A stretch of 64,000 bases of DNA, taken from Eledone cirrhosa. Lineage: Eukaryota. The stretch covers positions 216,814,001 through 216,878,000 of the forward strand of contig OZ024743.1 of the NCBI GenBank assembly GCA_964016885.1, given 5' to 3'. Positions 1 through 63,758 of this stretch are shown here, in pieces. Position 1 is the stretch's first letter. Each line of letters opens with the position of its first letter. The position numbers and the translations under genes were made by a program. Under the pieces are notes generated by a model, which was not told the origin of the DNA, made no database searches, and saw only the letters and a list, made by a program, of their open reading frames with translations.

Positions 1-300
1 CATAAAGAAAGTATATACTTTCAAACGTTCAATCATCTGACAGAAAGGTATACGATGCTGACGGTAGCTAATAAGCTTGAAATTAGTACATCGTTCCTAT
101 GTCAGTGTTGAACAAAAGGGCGACGATGGTTGCTGAGCACTGTACGGCGTAATTCGGGCTGTTTGTTTACAAACAAACCTAACAAAATAATAAATGTTCG
201 TAAACCCATACGTACGTATATATATGTGTGCATGTATTTATATATATACATACTACTGTACGTCTGAACACATATATGTATGTACGTATACATACTTATA
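1..300 (+). mobile_element. Partial, diverged copy of the 466-bp HHR-bearing (retrozyme-like) repeat family; HHR at 52-94 with a mutated core (CUGACGG)
   Basis: Reverse-complement homology to the 22.6-25.6 kb and 62.1 kb units (gaaagtatatactttc, agctaataagcttgaaattagtacatcg, gtttgtttacaaacaaac). Motif: ACGAUG-CUGACGG-UAGCUAAUAAGCUU-GAAA-UUAG-UA-CAUCGU. Confidence 0.8.
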
Positions 301-2382: not shown

Positions 2383-3345
2383 TAATAATTGTTTCTACTT
2401 TTGGCACAAGGCCAGCAATTGTCCAGTGTATTACTGTACTTTATTTTGTCGACCCCGTAAGGATGAAAGGCAAAGTTAACCTCGGCGGGATTTGAACTCA
2501 GAATGGCAAGGGCCGTAACTCTATGCGTCAAAGCATAGCGTCCGACCCTCTACCGATACTGCCAATTCACCGCTAAATAATTGTTTCTACTTTTGGCACA
2601 AGGCCAGCAATTATCCCAGTGTATTACTGGTATTTTATTTTATCGACCCCGTAAGGATGAAAGGCAAAGTTAACCTCGGCGGGATTTAAACTCAGTCCAT
2701 AAAGGGACGTAACTGTGCTGCAAAGCATGGCGCCCGACCCTCTACCGATACTGCCAATTTACCGCCCCTTTCATCATAGTAATAATGAATAACCAATACA
2801 ATTAATAATTGCTTCAACATATGGCACAAAGTTTGCACTATTAATTATTGTTTCTACTTTTAGCACAAGGCCAGCAATTGTCCAGTGCATTACTGGTACT
2901 TTATTTTATCAAACCCTTAAGGATGAAAAGCAAAGTTAACCGCAGCGTGATTTGAACTCAGAATGCAAAGGGCCATAACTCTATGTTGCAAAAAACAGTT
3001 TCTGACGCTATACCGATATTGCCAATCCATAGTAATAATTATTTCTACTTTTGGCACAAGGCCAGCAATTTTCAGTACATTACTGGTACTTTATTTTATC
3101 GACCCCGTAAGGATGAAAGGCAAAGTTAACCCCGACAGGATTTGAACTCATAGTAATAATTGTTTCTACTATTGGCACAAGGACAGCAATTTGTCCAGTC
3201 CATTACTGGTAATTTTTTTTGTCGACCCCGTAAGGATGAAAGGTAAAGTTAACCTCGGCGGGATTTGAACTCAGACCATAAAGGGGCATAACTCTTTACT
3301 TGAAAGCATGGCGTCCAACCCTCTACCGATACTGCCAATCCCGCG
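2383..3345 (-). mobile_element. Cluster of five tandem or partial copies of a ~190-bp tRNA-derived SINE
   Basis: Repeated unit whose minus strand has an A-box-like TGGCAGTATCGG, a B-box GTTCAAATCC, a central gcctttcatccttacggggtcgataaaataaagtaccag and a 3' end ggccttgtgccaaaagtagaaacaatta. Confidence 0.85.
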
Positions 3346-5742: not shown

Positions 5743-8007
5743 ATATGATAATAAGGGCGCTGCGGAGTTGCAAATGGGTTAAATATGAAAAAAGTTTGTC
5801 CTTCATCAGTGATCTTCCAACTATCATAGGCATTTCATCGCTTTAAAGACCATATACCTCCGGTTGGTGCGAGCAACGGCTAAAAAAAGTCGTTCGGACA
5901 CGTAAATAAAGGGGACACGAGGGTAAACAAACAAAATGGTGAGGCAACAGAAAGTGAGGTAGAAGGAGACAAGTCCCAGATTTCTATGAATTTAAGTTCG
6001 GTAAAATCGTGAACGAGAGAATAAAGACCATCAAACCTGGTTGAAATGTGAGCAAGGAAGGAATTTCGCACAGGTCTAACGGGAAGAAGAAGAGGTCTGG
6101 TCTGCGAATTCGGTAAACATAAGTTCTGTGAAATCGTAGACGAGAGAGAAAAAATTCCGACCAGCTTGGCCGAGAATGTGAGAGAAAATAATTACTCACA
6201 GGTCAAACGGGAAGAAAGAGGAGGAGGAGAGATAGTGACAGAGAATGAGTGAGTGAAGGGTGAGGTGAGGAAGAGGCCAACAGAGAGAGAGAGACTGCTA
6301 GAAAGGGTAAATATACATAGAACGAAAAAGACGGTGTAGCAGCAGAGGAAAAAATATGTGTAAATATGATAATAAGGGCGCTGCGGAGTTGCAAATGGGT
6401 TACATATGAAAAAAGTTTGTCCTTCATCACTGATCTTCCAACTATCATAGGCATTTCATCGCTTTAAAGACAATATACCTCCGGTTGGTGCGAGCAACGG
6501 CTAAAAAAAGTCGTTGGGACACGTAAATAAAGGGGACACGAGGGTAAACAAACAAAATGGTGAGGCAACAGAAAGTGAGGAAGAAGGAGACAAGTCCCAG
6601 ATTTCTATGAATTTAAGTTAGGTGAAATCGTGAACGAGAGAATAAAGACCATCAAACCTGGTTGAAATGTGAGCAAGGAAGGAATTTCGCACAGGTCTAA
6701 CGGGAGGAAGAAGGGGTCTGGTCTGCGAATTCGGTAAACATAAGTTCTGTGAAATCGTAGACGAGAGAGAAAAAATTCCGACCAGCTTGGCCGAGAATGT
6801 GAGAGAAAAGAATTACTCACAGGTCAAACGGGAAGAAAGAGGAGGAGGAGAGGTAGTGACAGAGAATGAGTGAGTGAAGGGTGAGGTGAGGAAGAGGCCA
6901 ACAGAGAGAGAGACTGCTAGAAAGGGTAAAGATACATAGAACGAAAAAGACGGTGTAGCAGCAGAGGAAAAAATATGTGTAAATATGATAATAAGGGCGG
7001 TGCGGAGTTGCAAATGGGTTACATATGAAAAAAGTTTGTCTTTCATCAGTGATCTTCCAACTACCATAGGCATTTCATCGCTTTAAAGATCATATACCTC
7101 TGGTTGGTGCGAGCAACGGCTAAAAAAAGTCGTTGGGACACGTAAATAAAGGGGACACGAGGGTAAACAAACAAAATGGTGAGGCAACAGAAAGTGAGGT
7201 AGAAGGAGACAAGTCCCAGATTTCTATGAATTTAAGTTCGGTGAAATCGTGAACGAGAGAATAAAGACAATCAAACCTGGTTGAAATGTGAGCAAGGAAG
7301 GAATTTCGCACAGGTCTAACAGGAGGAAGAAGGGGTCTGGTCTGCGAATTCGGTAAACATAAGTTCTGTGAAATCGTAGACGAGAGAGAAAAAATTCCGA
7401 CCAGCTTGGCCGAGAATGTGAGAGAAAAGAATTACTCACAGGTCAAACGGGAAGAAAGAGGAGGAGGAGAGGTAGTGACAGAGAATGAGTGAGTGAAGGG
7501 TGAGGTGAGGAAGAGGCCAACAGAGAGAGAGACTGCTAGAAAGGGTAAAGATACATAGAACGAAAAAGACGGTGTAGCAGCAGAGGAAAAAATATGTGTA
7601 AATATGATAATAAGGGCGCTGCGGAGTTGCAAATGGGTTACATATGAAAAAAGTTTACCCTTCATCAGTGATCTTCCAACTATCATAGGCATTTCATCGC
7701 TTTAAAGACCATATACCTCCGGTTGGTGCGAGCAACGGCTAAAAAAAGTCGTTGGGACACGTAAATAAAGGGGACACGAGGGTAAACAAACAAAATGGTG
7801 AGGCAACAGAAAGTGAGGTAGAAGGAGACAAGTCCCAGATTTCTATGAATTTAAGTTCGGTGAAATCGTGAACGAGAGAATAAAGACAATCAAACCTGGT
7901 TGAAATGTGAGCAAGGAAGGAATTTCGCACAGGTCTAACAGGAGGAAGAAGGGGTCTGGTCTGCGAATTCGGTAAACATAAGTTCTGTGAAATCGTAGAC
8001 GAGAGAG
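5743..8007 (-). repeat. Tandem array of ~3.6 copies of a 619-621 bp non-coding unit embedded in (TA)n; each unit carries a permuted hammerhead-like motif
   Basis: Landmarks recur at 5803, 6424, 7043 and 7662 (periods 621, 619, 619). TA microsatellite flanks both sides. Homologous to 47224-48380 on the opposite strand. Confidence 0.95.
5803..5867 (-). ncRNA. Candidate non-circularly permuted hammerhead ribozyme (also 7043-7107 and 7662-7726; degenerate at 6424-6488)
   Basis: Minus strand reads CCAACC GG AGGUA-U-A-UGGUCUU UAAAGCGAU GAAA-UGCCU AUGAUA GUUGG AAGAUCA-CUGAUGA. Stem III is AGGUA/UGCCU and stem I is UGGUCUU/AAGAUCA. Confidence 0.6.
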
Positions 8008-39988: not shown

Positions 39989-40770
39989 ATACTTTGGGAG
40001 GGTCATGTTGCCAATAAGAAACACACGCACCAGTTGCTTTCACTTCAATTTAATTTAATATATATTTATAAATTTACAAATTTATAAATTTCTGGTTGGT
40101 TGGTTGGTTCCACAACCAGATAGTTGTTTATATATATATAGTCATAGTTCTTTCGTCACACACTCTGTGACCTCTTCAGTGACTGGGGATTTCTTTCTTC
40201 GTTTCTGTGCCTTTCCTTTCTTCTATCCTACGCCATTTTGTTTGTGTGTGGGTTGCGTGCTCAGTTTGCGCATGCGCCACATCCGGGTGTCTGTGTGTGT
40301 TTGTGTTCATTTTTCTATTTTTCTATTTATATTTGTTTGTTTATTTATTTATTTATTGTTGGTTGGTTGTTTGTTCTATGTGTGTGTGTGTTTTCATTTT
40401 GTCTTGTGTGTGTTTTCATTTTGTGTGTGTTTTCAATTGTAAGTTGTTTATATATGTGTGTGTGTGTTTTCATTTTGTCCTTAATTGTAAGTTGTGATGT
40501 TGCTGTTCCACTCATATTTTCTATTTAATTTTGGTTTTAATTCTTTTATGCTTACTGCCTCTGTAATTTGCCTAAACATTGCGTCTTTCTTGTGTGTGGA
40601 TTCTATTTTTATTTCTATGCTCTCTAATTTACCCCTGTGTTCTATCTTAGCATGTTGGTAGAGCACAGATGATTCTTTACTATCTTGGAGGTCTCGCCAG
40701 TGTTCATTTATTCGTTCCCCTATACTACGAGCTGTCTCACCTATGTACACTATATTTTTGTTTCTACATT
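39983..40770 (-). mobile_element. 5'-truncated Penelope-like element (GIY-YIG C-terminus, 3' UTR, HHR at 40140-40184); left arm of a head-to-head inverted pair
   Basis: ORF 40481-40750 YIGETARSIGERINEH...HAKIEH...RQITEAVSIKELKPKLNRKYEW matches the PLE GIY-YIG endonuclease pattern. Confidence 0.9.
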
Positions 40771-40814
40771 AGTACATCTTAGCATAAGTACATTTTTGTT
40801 TCTACATTAGTACA

Positions 40815-41700
40815 TCTTAGCATAAGATGTACTGAGGGACAATGTAGAAACAAAAATATAAAAAAAAATATAGTGTACATAGGTGAGACAGCTCGTAGTA
40901 TAGGGGAACGAATAAATGAACACTGGCGAGACCTCCAAGATAGTAAAGAATCATCTGTGCTCTACCAACATGCTAAGATAGAACACAGGGGTAAATTAGA
41001 GAGCATAGAAATAAAAATAGAATCCACACACAAGAAAGACGCAATGTTTAGGCAAATTACAGAGGCAGTAAGCATAAAAGAATTAAAACCAAAATTAAAT
41101 AGAAAATATGAGTGGAACAGCAACATCACAACTTACAATTAAGGACAAAATGAAAACACACACACACATATATAAACAACTTACAATTGAAAACACACAC
41201 AAAATGAAAACACACACAAGACAAAATGAAAACACACACACACATAGAACAAACAACCAACCAACAATAAATAAATAAATAAACAAACAAATATAAATAG
41301 AAAAATAGAAAAATGAACACAAACACACACAGACACCCGGATGTGGCGCATGCGCAAACTGAGCACGCAACCCACACACAAACAAAATGGCGTAGGATAG
41401 AAGAAAGGAAAGGCACAGAAACGAAGAAAGAAATCCCCAGTCACTGAAGAGGTCACAGAGTGTGTGACGAAAGAACTATGACTATATATATATAAACAAC
41501 TATCTGGTTGTGGAACCAACCAACCAACCAGAAATTTATAAATTTGTAAATTTATAAATATATATTAAATTAAATTGAAGTGAAAGCAACTGGTGCGTGT
41601 GTTTCTTATTGGCAACATGACCCTCCCAAAGTATAACAATATCGGTTTCAACACACGATTTCAGATAAAGAATCTTGCTAAACAAATTCAGAAACGAAAT
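40815..41700 (+). mobile_element. 5'-truncated Penelope-like element (GIY-YIG C-terminus, 3' UTR, HHR); right arm of the inverted pair
   Basis: ORF 40873-41142 encodes the same peptide as the left arm; the element ends gaaacgaaat|atatat. Confidence 0.9.
41439..41483 (+). ncRNA. Minimal type I hammerhead motif in the PLE 3' end (also 40140-40184 on - and 46297-46341 on +)
   Basis: AGUCA-CUGAAGA-G-GUCAC AGAGUGU GUGAC-GAAA-GAAC-UA-UGACU. Confidence 0.8.
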
Positions 41701-45569: not shown

Positions 45570-46504
45570 AGCAAGATATACCCGTTCCAAAGACCCTCAT
45601 GTATAGATAAGAAATGTATAACCTGTAAAATAAGCCCCCATATTAACTGTAAAACTAGAAATGTAGTGTATGGCATAAGATGTACAGAAGGACAATGTAG
45701 AAACAAAAATATAGTGTACATAGGTGAGACAGCTCGTAGTATAGGGGAACGAATAAATGAACACTGGCGAGACCTCCAATATAATAAAGAATCATCTGTG
45801 CTCTACCAACATGCTAAGATAGAACACAGGGGTAGACTAGAGAACATAGAAATAAAAATAGAATCCACACACAGAAAAGACGCAATGTTTAGACAAATTA
45901 CAGAGGCAGTAAGCATAAAAGAATTAAAACCAAAATTAAAAATTAAATAGAAAATATGAGTGGAACAGCAACATCACAACTTACAATTAAGGACAAAATG
46001 AAAACACACACAGGACAAAATGAAAACAGACAAAAACACACACACACATAGAACAAACAACCTACAATTAAGGACAAAATGAAAACACACACAGGACAAA
46101 ATGAAAACACACACACACATAGAACAAACAACCAACCAACAATAAATATATAAATAAATAAACAAATAGATAAATGAACACAAACAGACACCCGGATGTG
46201 GCGCATGCGCAAACTGAGCACACAACACACACACAGAAACAAAATTGCGTAGGATAGAAGAAAGGAAAAGCACAGAAACAAAGGAAAGGAATCCCCAGTC
46301 ACTGAAGAGGTCACAGAGTGTGTGACGAAAGGACTATGACTATATATAAACAACTATCTGGTTGTGGAACCAACCAACCAACCAGAAATTTATAAATTTA
46401 TAAGTTTGTAAATTTGTAAATTTAGAAATATATAATAAATTGAAGTGAAAGCAACTGGTGCGTGTGTTTCTTATTGGCAACATGACCCTCCCAAAGTATA
46501 ACAA
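45570..46504 (+). mobile_element. 5'-truncated PLE (same family as 40-41.7 kb): Cys-rich linker, GIY-YIG, 3' UTR and HHR, in (TA)n
   Basis: PFQRPSCIDKKCITC...CKTRNVVYGIRC...YIGETARSIGERINEH. Frameshifting insertion near 45940. Ends gtataacaat|atat. Confidence 0.9.
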
Positions 46505-47223: not shown

Positions 47224-47226
<3 letters not shown>

Positions 47227-62108: not shown

Positions 62109-62811
62109 ATAAATGGAAAAAATTAAACGAAATTTCATTTCTCACTCTTAGTACGGCTGTTACTTAAATATAAGTATGTATACGTACATACATATATGTA
62201 TACAGACGTACACTAGTATGTATATATATACATACATGCACATATATATATATATATGTATGTATTGATTTACCGAACATTTATTATAATGCTCGGTTTG
62301 TTTGTAAACAAACATCCCGAATTAAGCCGTAGAGTGTTTAGCAACCATCGATGCCCTTTTGTCAACTCTCACAAAGGAAGGATGTACTAGTTTCAAGCTT
62401 ATTAGCTATCGTCAGCACCGTATACCTTCCTGCCAGACGATTGAACGTCTGAAAGTATATACTTTCCTTATGCATATTAACGGCTGAGCAGCCTAATTTG
62501 CATATCGAGTGATTTAATCGGCCGGGCACACCATAAACGATAAATGGAAAAAATGAAACGAAATTTCGTTTCTCACTCTTAGTACGGCTGTAACTTAAAT
62601 GTTTGTATGTATATGTACATACATATATGTATACAGGCGTACAAGAGTATGTATATATATATACATACGTGCACACATATATATATGTACGTATGGATTT
62701 ACCGAACATTTATTATAATGCATAAGGAAAGTATATACTTTCAGAACAAAGAGCAACGATGGTTACTAAACACTGTACCGCTTAATTCGGGATGTTTGTT
62801 TACAAACAAAC
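62109..62811 (-). mobile_element. ~1.4 diverged units (~430 bp) of the 466-bp retrozyme-like family plus short inverted fragments; HHR with intact core at 62381-62420
   Basis: Minus strand CGGUG-CUGACGA-UAGCUAAUAAGCUU-GAAA-CUAG-UA-CAUC; also shares ggctgagcagcctaatttgcata with the array unit. Confidence 0.85.
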
Positions 62812-63758
62812 CGGTTAAAGATGGAGCGGTATTTATGACCTATGGGAAAGTGTCTATCTAAGAGGGCTAGACATTTTTTTCCTACATTGGTTTTAACGTT
62901 GAGTGAGAAGGGAGGAGAGAACCTGATAGTTTGTTTATTGTTGCGCTTACTTTTCTTAATGGTGTTGTTGCTAGTGGAATACCGATCCATCTTTAACCGA
63001 CACAAAGTTAAACTAGGATGCTCCTGCGCTAAGAACATGAAGACCCACATCACCAGCAGCCCTAGGAGCAACACCCCACCCGGGTGCTCTTGCCGTAAGC
63101 CGGAAGCTTGCCCACTTCAACAGCAATGCAACAGACCAGCTGTAATTTATGAAGCTGTAGTCACTTCCAACCGACCAAACGAACCACAGGAGGTCAAATC
63201 CTATATGGGCATGGTGGAGGGCCGATTTAAGGAACGTTTACTGAACCACTAATCTACCTTCAGGTACCCGGACAGACGTTCATCCACGAAACACGCGAGC
63301 CCCGTATGGTCCCTCAAGGACTCAAGTATACTCAATTCAATGGAAAGCCATCACTAAGACCAATCCATACGCAAGGGGAAATCCGACGTGTGGCTTATGT
63401 ATTGACGAACGAATAACTATTCTAAAGAGCTTACACAATAATGATTGCCTAAACACGATAAATGAATTTTTCACACGTTGTCCACAAGTCGCCAAACACC
63501 TATTGCATAACTACAAAGCTCCGGACTAATTCTTTGTAATTTTATTTTCAACCTAAAAACTTTTCAGACTTTCGCAGTTATCTCCCTTACACCTCTCGCA
63601 CGCAGTCTAGTATTGCCTGTGTGAAGTGACAGGGTTTCTGCGCATGCGCGTTCGTACGGTTGTCCTTCCTGTTTCTATAACCATGCCCATTCCGAGCTGA
63701 GGATCCGCAAAGATCAAACAATTGTTCTCGGTATGGTGAACTAATTGTTGTGTAACTA

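Follow-up and report, generated by a model that had tools for sequence, protein, structure and literature searches.

A non-circularly permuted hammerhead core, with a predicted kink-turn, in an abundant repeat of Eledone cirrhosa

Can a repeat of a eukaryotic chromosome carry a hammerhead core in non-circular order and, if so, how would the helices of its RNA close and how would its copies have spread? The question is raised by two tandem arrays in a 64,000-nucleotide (nt) stretch of Eledone cirrhosa DNA (GenBank assembly GCA_964016885.1, contig OZ024743.1, positions 216,814,001 to 216,878,000 of the forward strand), called the window here, whose units hold a cut site, GAAA and CUGAUGA in that order. 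Comparison of many genomic copies leads us to consider it probable that the arrays belong to a retrozyme-like, non-coding repeat with a non-circular hammerhead core, four covarying helices and a predicted kink-turn; its RNA likely cleaves itself after AUH, and Penelope-like retrotransposons are the likely means by which it is copied into (TA)n. What appears to be a real novelty is a covariation-supported variant of the non-circularly permuted hammerhead, with cleavage predicted, in a very abundant mobile repeat. A first-pass annotation had proposed a permuted core in a retrozyme-like repeat, and that much stands; its caveats, that stem II is nearly absent and that an outer helix may hinder folding, do not.

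The window arrays and their genomic relatives

The two arrays lie on opposite strands; their units, about 76% identical, represent subfamilies A and B.

5746..8007, minus strand: subfamily A tandem array, three full units of 619-621 bp plus partial units, 5'-truncated, inside (TA)n
47225..48378, plus strand: subfamily B tandem array, one full 696-bp unit plus partial units, inside (TA)n

The subfamily A array ends, at its 3' side, about 105 nt beyond the last cut site. Coding capacity in both arrays is limited to short, low-complexity open reading frames (ORFs) of 63-119 codons. Six copies of the motif are distributed between the arrays.

5802..5872, minus strand: predicted ribozyme, intact; AUA ends at 5853, the predicted cut following it
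6423..6493, minus strand: damaged predicted ribozyme, with C3G and one mismatched position in stem I; AUA ends at 6474
7042..7112, minus strand: predicted ribozyme; AUA ends at 7093; a stem I A-U replaces G.U, and kink-turn position 2b is G, not A
7661..7731, minus strand: predicted ribozyme, intact; AUA ends at 7712
47544..47614, plus strand: predicted ribozyme; AUA ends at 47563; a single mismatch in helix X, at its inner end
48240..48310, plus strand: predicted ribozyme, the intact 71-nt reference copy; AUA ends at 48259

A direct read-out of the sequence confirms what the first-pass annotation had observed: all six copies, their block order and their sites are present, as are two double changes from U-A to C-G in stem I and the G.U to A-U change in the 7042-7112 copy, and the copy that it had singled out as degenerate (6423-6493) does carry both C3G and stem I damage. 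A search of the whole window against Rfam returned nothing relevant, the 150 listed among its 515 matches being microRNA-like matches on low-complexity DNA and one viral untranslated region, all below the gathering threshold; between 5750 and 8000, with E up to 10, the sole match was one long non-coding RNA (lncRNA) fragment at 9.8. No tRNA was found in the window.

The repeat is both dispersed and tandem in the Eledone cirrhosa genome. Exact patterns run against the 3.0-Gb assembly gave 7,895 matches for TA-N7-TAAAGCGATGAAA (1 in the reversed control) and 3,071 and 2,961 for two further patterns (control 1 in each case), while a wider pattern gave 14,561 and a pattern in which stem III does not start with GG gave 1,732, with no control match for either. 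These counts stand so far above the reversed controls that chance is excluded. The last two sets cannot overlap, and their sum of 16,293 exact matches is a lower bound on copies. Tandem spacings run from 445 to 832 bp, mostly as units of 445-830 bp, and arrays reach 9 units. A general 53-letter pattern found no match in metagenome and viral contigs, prokaryotic genome contigs lying outside that scan, and two of four sequencing runs of unknown kind, all from one study, contain the repeat, which has no bearing on its expression.

Copies for comparison came from loci L001-L260 and the window: 330 distinct genomic copies, from which 32 that were truncated, shifted by indels or broken by microsatellites were dropped, leaving 298. 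Their 199 haplotypes were thinned to 134 for alignment, and 252 of the 298 clean copies fall into 15 subfamilies of at least three copies, with 46 outside. An old and decayed clade O was found by DNA similarity from one divergent copy (167 candidates, 40 scored); its flanks gave no blastn alignment with subfamily A. A hold-out pattern, lacking the upstream stem II strand, helix X, the stem I 5' strand and the CUGAUGA block, retrieved new families in a set of 24 sequences.

Helices, core and the predicted kink-turn

Positions are counted from the G of GAAA, so that G12 is 0 and corresponds to 48276 of the window in the reference copy, all parts of which are on the plus strand:

48240..48243: upstream strand that would give most of stem II (UCGC), pairing with 48271-48274 (GCGA)
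48245..48250: 5' strand of helix X, the stem I-II interaction helix, pairing with 48290-48295
48251..48253: non-bulged strand of the predicted kink-turn (3n, 2n G, 1n A)
48254..48259: 5' strand of stem III, U16.1 and A17; predicted cut at 48259/48260
48260..48266: 3' strand of stem I (pseudoknot), pairing with 48296-48302
48267..48275: invariant UAA linker (48267-48269), stem II 3' strand (48271-48274) and position 11.1 (48275)
48276..48283: GAAA core (G12-A15.1) and stem III 3' strand
48284..48289: 3-nt bulge of the predicted kink-turn, then G1b, A2b and 3b
48290..48302: 3' strand of helix X, continuing directly as the 5' strand of stem I
48303..48310: CUGAUGA core followed by position 10.1, whose pair with 11.1 forms in 13 of the 15 subfamilies

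Along the chain the RNA would thus run through the stem II 5' strand, helix X, kink-turn, stem III, cut site, stem I, UAA, the stem II 3' strand, GAAA, and then back through stem III, kink-turn, helix X and stem I to CUGAUGA, with stems I and II closing as two pseudoknots on a hairpin made of X, the kink and III.

The helices of this model are stem III (-22..-18 with 3..7), stem I (-16..-10 with 20..26), helix X (-31..-26 with 14..19), the upstream stem II (-36..-33 with -5..-2) and the single pair 34 with -1. Among the 134 thinned copies 87.6% of model cells are paired, compared with 72.8% in shuffles, a control that ignores the relatedness of the copies, and 30-47% in slid registers; both sides have changed at 21 of the 24 pairs. 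Across the 15 subfamilies standard pairing holds in 309 of 315 cells of the 21 firm pairs, with up to four pair types per position, and the seven best of 3,160 possible 4-bp helices all fall in III, I, X or the upstream stem II. Model cells hold nine G.U and two A.C combinations, an excess that fits an RNA of the ribozyme-sense strand. The covariation that the first-pass annotation had seen within the window therefore holds and grows in the larger alignment, and stem I, which it had read as a pseudoknot, covaries across genomic copies.

It is helix X that changes most. The pairing CCAAC/GUUGG had been regarded as a likely hindrance to folding, and it turns out to belong to the most variable and best-compensated helix of all: 90.3% of its cells are paired in the thinned copies, five of its six pairs are compensated, and it occurs as CCAACC/GGUUGG, CUGAUU/AAUCAG, CUAGGC/GCCUAG, CUGGCC/GGCCAG, CCAACG/CGUUGG, CUGGAG/CUCCAG and CCGAAG/CUUCGG. 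So many forms with pairing kept argue that helix X is selected.

Stem II, which had been thought reduced to about one A-U pair, can instead be read as a 4-bp helix whose 5' strand lies upstream of the cut site, just before helix X, and pairs with the strand before U-GAAA. Pair -35:-3 is C-G or U-A. Pair -36:-2 shows three types, being U-A in general, G-C in clade O and A-U in a hold-out family; within the hold-out set it is A-U in 10 of 24, U-A in 6, G-C in 1 and unpaired in 7, most of the latter shifted by indels, and where -2 has changed to U, -36 has changed to A. The last pair, 10.1-11.1, is standard in 13 of the 15 families (G-C in 2, A-U in 4, G.U in 4, U-A in 3) and unpaired in 2. Stem II thus appears to be present mostly in a split form, with four base pairs from the upstream strand and one pair after CUGAUGA, and with weaker support than the other three helices. 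A stem II drawn entirely from the strand after CUGAUGA was rejected in 14 of 15 families, as it gives no continuous helix in any of three registers: each register has, among its first two positions, at least one that pairs in just 1 of 15 families. The L120 family (7 copies) has U.U at -36:-2, and there the downstream strand could give a stem II of 2-3 bp, which suggests that the crossover point within stem II has moved. Judged by eye, a further helix bridging the strand break, from downstream GGAC to a strand upstream of -37, looks plausible for clade O and for subfamilies A, B and D, and mismatched for C and E.

Helix X and stem III are joined on both strands, with fixed spacings of 3 nt and 6 nt. 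The kink-turn consensus consists of a canonical (C) helix, a 3-nt bulge, G.A then A.G pairs, and a non-canonical (NC) helix, and in the Kt-23 variant the 2b.2n pair is A.U, dependent on G at 3n (PMC2790904, in the parts available). In the present repeat stem III would be the C helix and positions 8-10 the bulge, with G11.A-23 as 1b.1n and A12.G-24 as 2b.2n. The closing C-G, G1b and A2b are found in 15 of 15 families and A1n in 14; 2n is G in 12 and U in 3, and the letters of the bulge and of 3b.3n vary. The hold-out set has A1n in 23 of its 24 sequences, U at 2n in 15 and G at 3n in 11. As G1b and A2b stand in the finder and hold-out patterns, the independent evidence for the kink-turn is A1n and 2n. 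The X-III loop sequence thus fits the kink-turn consensus, its geometry being predicted. Of the stem III pairing described in the first-pass annotation, the change from U.G to C-G is there; its fifth pair, A-23 with +8, is A.A in 7 of 15 subfamilies and is better read as part of the kink-turn than as a Watson-Crick pair. Kink-turns elsewhere have an included angle near 60 degrees, and one bends the SAM-I riboswitch for a long-range contact (PMC3651934). A kink here would similarly bend helix X back towards the I/II junction and let it return there.

The core itself (C3 U4 G5 A6 N7 G8 A9, G12 A13 A14 A15.1, U16.1 H17) is invariant in the 15 subfamily majorities, save that one family of three copies departs at C3. 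At the family level N7 alternates between U and C, and H17 between A and C, never G; hammerheads allow variation at the same two positions. The invariant columns comprise the core, the pairs next to it, the UAA linker, the kink-turn GA, two T columns further upstream and a small number of letters in the stems; the linker is followed by one or two loosely paired bases before the stem II 3' strand. Since core letters stood in the search patterns for many copies, their conservation within families is no evidence. In clade O, found by similarity, the letters of the CUGAUGA block are kept in 22-25 of 25 copies and G12 in 19 of 25, and the majority has the same core. Readings as Pistol or twister were weighed against the consensus of each and dropped, with Rfam as the search applied to them. 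Two copies are altered exactly at the predicted cut site, one by a 4-nt duplication with one extra base and the other by an inverted junction (L132 and L100, both minus strand); these single cases could be scars of cleavage and ligation.

Mobility and competing readings

The copies end in a consistent way. A run of (TA)4 or longer lies 50-139 nt past the cut site in 220 of 234 terminal copies, while 5' ends are scattered (63 of 229 within 226 nt), and of 195 loci 31 have head-to-head pairs and 5 tail-to-tail pairs, some overlapping. Copies reach hundreds of bases, up to 9 units, upstream of the cut site, and so long an extension suggests that the template was circular or multimeric. Three loci (L073, L074, L133) show a direct head-to-head junction, with no microsatellite between, of a 5'-truncated unit and a fragment from one family that we take, by its reverse transcriptase (RT) and endonuclease motifs, to be Penelope-like; its GIY-YIG match is weak (E 0.036). 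Insertion of Penelope-like elements is described as leaving 5' truncation, inverted 5' copies, microsatellite targets and defined 3' ends (PMC8557442, available text), and Penelope RT initiates internally and prefers AT-rich targets (PMC11167929, likewise). The fixed 3' ends in (TA)n, variable 5' ends, inversions and three Penelope junctions point to mobilisation by Penelope, and copying into (TA)n by Penelope-like retrotransposons is likely.

In the proposed life cycle, cleavage of multimeric transcripts would release RNAs one unit long, bearing 5'-OH and cyclic phosphate ends, which would circularise; a Penelope-like RT-endonuclease would use A/T microhomology to prime 50-140 nt past the cut site, and copying round the circle (or along a multimer) would yield 5'-truncated monomers, tandems and head-to-head pairs.

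Penelope may also have supplied the ribozyme. The conventional type I hammerhead of that same Penelope-like family begins with 14 nt identical to one subfamily's block from CUGAUGA, and older subfamilies keep a GGA-N3-UCC hairpin after CUGAUGA that resembles Penelope hammerhead stem II. We offer as a hypothesis, then, an origin from the Penelope type I hammerhead, which is in line with the accessible part of the 2026 preprint by Li, Clavereau and Pollet (10.64898/2026.07.22.740005).

Other Penelope-like traces occur as well. By tblastn the window holds Penelope-like ORF fragments at 40484-41139, 45582-45917, 57764-58299 and 62811-63526, two of them as head-to-head inverted pairs, and a hairpin at 40.7-40.9 kb scored by Rfam as mir-5014 is a Penelope-like inverted junction. 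A decayed Penelope-like element at L133:2250-4866 (minus strand) has two different minimal type I hammerheads and three flanking permuted-ribozyme units, and motif spacing at G000:C1:35462051-35465687 is near-identical to it. Kilobase-long (TA)n-rich tracts occupy 16602-22655, 25658-27254 and 50130-53116 of the window, and between very long tracts of this kind lies a 466-bp tandem repeat (22653-25657; 6.4 copies, 99% identical). No hammerhead motif was found in the 466-bp unit examined, and it may be another microsatellite-targeting element. Short tandem fragments at 2384-2765 and 3028-3273 presumably resemble the tail of an octopus tRNA-derived short interspersed element (SINE).

A number of observations count against the reading favoured here. 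Blind ranking by mutual information (MI, with average product correction) is dominated by phylogeny and does not single out the model, the upstream stem II pairs ranking 553-2,269 of 3,828; pair counts give that stem no significance when it is taken alone (137 and 178 of 500 shuffles), and two of its four pairs are invariant between families. The canonical G10.1-C11.1 is found in only 2 of 15 families, the 10.1-11.1 position is paired in 16 of 24 hold-out sequences (67.9% of cells overall), and the strand break adjoins the core. Nested folding, which cannot represent the pseudoknots, gives weak z-scores (-0.67, -0.77, -1.77), and with its flanks the B copy (48225-48340, plus strand) prefers an upstream flank pairing with the helix X 3' strand that removes X; in the folding model such a competing helix could turn off the subfamily B ribozyme. 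Contig C1 supplied most of the loci found by pattern, and the finder template held G1b, A2b and some stem letters. Genomic 5' ends have no sharp pile-up at the cut site, with 3 of 60 short-extension cases exactly there, in a test where ends spread over the whole ribozyme and which is confounded by TA microhomology and search bias. Penelope-like fragments occur in 27 of 260 loci, which includes a few artefacts of one query that overlapped a unit tail and is no more than the window's own density, with no clear strand bias, and no autonomous element carrying the permuted ribozyme was seen among the 260 loci so screened.

The best of the alternatives, though an unlikely one, is that the helices form only between neighbouring units or two molecules, the RNA being a plain SGC hammerhead (cut site, GAAA, CUGAUGA) with a 550-nt insert and the 71-nt monomer inactive. 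In a tandem transcript the upstream strand of the next unit does lie 3' of CUGAUGA, which is SGC order, amphibian and Penelope hammerheads act as dimers (PMC7229834, sections available), and covariation cannot separate cis from trans; yet the kink-turn letters and the fixed 3-nt and 6-nt spacings are kept on both strands of one unit, which would be purposeful only if X and III form one continuous kinked duplex, and X plus III is the nested consensus of RNAalifold. The first-pass annotation had supposed that the RNA may act between adjacent units; this is not needed, since the kink-turn fit makes a monomer fold plausible.

Somewhat less likely again is a fold that is real but non-catalytic or too slow, kept as a recognition structure for Penelope or for a kink-turn-binding protein. 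The weak 10.1-11.1 pair and the want of a sharp 5'-end peak would suit it, as would the anole Penelope, where hammerhead cleavage is unneeded for insertion in vitro and no RNA-seq reads end at the cut site (PMC11167929, in the text available). The invariant single-stranded letters are nonetheless those of the catalytic set, with variation at N7 and H17, even though subfamily flanks no longer align.

An ordinary satellite or SINE-like repeat, in which founder changes mimic covariation while CUGAUGA and GAAA arose by chance or were left behind by Penelope, is very improbable and is largely refuted. The copies are related in ways that the shuffle control ignores, the blind MI ranking is unclear, and from CUGAUGA onwards one subfamily shares 14 nt with a conventional Penelope hammerhead of the same genome; set against these are four helices, two of them crossing, with nearly all family cells paired and up to four pair types, and a hold-out family that restored pairing at a position absent from the search pattern. 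Scarcely credible is a box C/D-like small RNA with kink-turn, its CUGA and AUGAUG boxes and UGAUGA as C box, for although the two strands of several families do show CUGA and AUGAUG respectively, other families have UUA, GUA or GGA in place of CUGA, Rfam gave just the lncRNA fragment, and stems I, II, III and GAAA are left unexplained.

Comparison with known hammerheads, kink-turns and retrozymes

Eckert et al. (PMC10085705, to which the following statements refer as far as its text was available) divided the hammerhead into blocks S (cut site), G (GAAA) and C (CUGAUGA) and, assuming that blocks cannot be interrupted, arrived at six orders. Metatranscriptomes were the source of their SGC RNAs and metagenomes that of CSG, SGC cleavage rates were 0.007-0.19 per minute, and activity of SGC-3 needs four helices including the stem I-II interaction helix. 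The accessible text gives no non-circular form in the genome of a known organism apart from one weak bacterial GCS candidate. The search patterns used require CGAAA, CUGAUGAG or CUGAUGAUG, plus a downstream stem II, and would thus miss the Eledone cirrhosa repeat. In the literature searched, which left most subscription journals outside its coverage, Eckert 2023 is the sole report of non-circular hammerheads and this repeat family is unreported; a 2026 paper, in the part available, cites just Eckert and two others for alternative forms (PMC13725137).

The rearranged order that the first-pass annotation had noticed is that of a non-circular core in a retrozyme-like repeat, and the order itself had already been published as type SGC. 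With type-SGC (HRIMA-1 and a variant) and type-CSG the present RNA shares reverse cyclic block order, a double pseudoknot, a short I-to-II linker (UUA or UUAAUA in theirs, UAA here), short X-III links and a helix X leading directly into the stem I 5' strand. In SGC and CSG the stem II 5' strand follows CUGAUGA, the stem is closed by G-C, and there is one X-III link, whereas here X' and the 5' strand of stem II both precede the cut site and the two X-III links are closed by the predicted kink-turn. The block order, short linker and interaction helix of SGC are all found, with a block C that is interrupted. The host differs as well, a large eukaryotic genome in place of metatranscriptome or metagenome. 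Because the stem II 5' strand is followed by X' as in SGC, only its place in the chain differing, the RNA is, on its predicted fold, a circular permutation of SGC/CSG opened inside stem II between 10.1 and 10.2, and lies outside Eckert's six layouts. A bolder formulation, on which we find the balance even, would make this a seventh natural hammerhead topology, opened in stem II and with a kink-turn on stem III, amplified as an animal retrozyme to tens of thousands of copies, and possibly switched by a host protein, 15.5K/Snu13, whose binding to the kink-turn would license both cleavage and the formation of circles.

It is important to emphasize what such an RNA would mean. The repeat, present at least 16,000 times and lying in a eukaryotic chromosome, breaks the rule of uninterrupted blocks, and its at least 15 subfamilies form an evolutionary series, including one with a shifted stem II crossover, so that the origin of non-circular permutations becomes directly testable, with the Penelope type I hammerhead as candidate source. 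In Eckert's RNAs the linker between stem III and the interaction helix can be as short as 0 nt, yet the two ends that it joins lie far apart in the crystal structure (PMC10085705, as above); the kink-turn, if true, would solve this geometric puzzle and offer a natural handle for protein control of a small ribozyme. "k-turn" and "kink" have no match in the supplement of PMC10085705, and no natural hammerhead with a k-turn was found reported in the literature searched, with the same restriction as to subscription journals. Kt-7, Kt-23 and the SAM-I k-turn have the same 3-nt bulge 3' of the canonical helix followed by G.A and then A.G or A.U (PMC2790904, PMC3651934, both in part); the predicted one differs in standing on a hammerhead stem III.

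Penelope pseudo-long terminal repeats (pseudo-LTRs) with minimal type I hammerheads resemble the repeat in 5' truncation, inverted 5' copies, (TA)n targets and internal initiation near the hammerhead, and differ from it in that the repeat has no ORF and a different ribozyme topology (PMC8557442; PMC11167929, available portions). Separately, at least five further CUGANGA-hairpin-GAAA families are present at many loci (L001, L008, L017, L044, L148, L154, L157 and others) and are presumably Penelope pseudo-LTR hammerheads, and a distinct tandem repeat of 467 bp at L122 (G000:C1:80327000-80330000), also at L063 and L115, whose motif resembles a conventional type I hammerhead (CUGAUGA, stem II hairpin, GAAA), is a candidate ordinary retrozyme.

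Non-LTR retrozymes carry type I hammerheads in units of 150-450 bp and form highly self-paired circles (PMC7229834). Retrozymes of this kind are expressed as monomer RNAs, both linear and circular. The pipeline of the 2026 preprint, as far as its text is available, used type I models only, in 35 species (10.64898/2026.07.22.740005), and screens limited in this way miss whole families. With animal non-LTR retrozymes the Eledone cirrhosa repeat shares a lack of coding sequence, units that are both scattered and in tandem and hold a single hammerhead, a copy number in the thousands, low GC and co-occurrence with Penelope-like elements (PMC7229834; 10.64898/2026.07.22.740005, both in part). It departs from them in its permuted ribozyme in place of type I, its mostly 445-830 bp units, its pyrimidine-rich sequence and, in subfamily B, its mostly open centroid fold.

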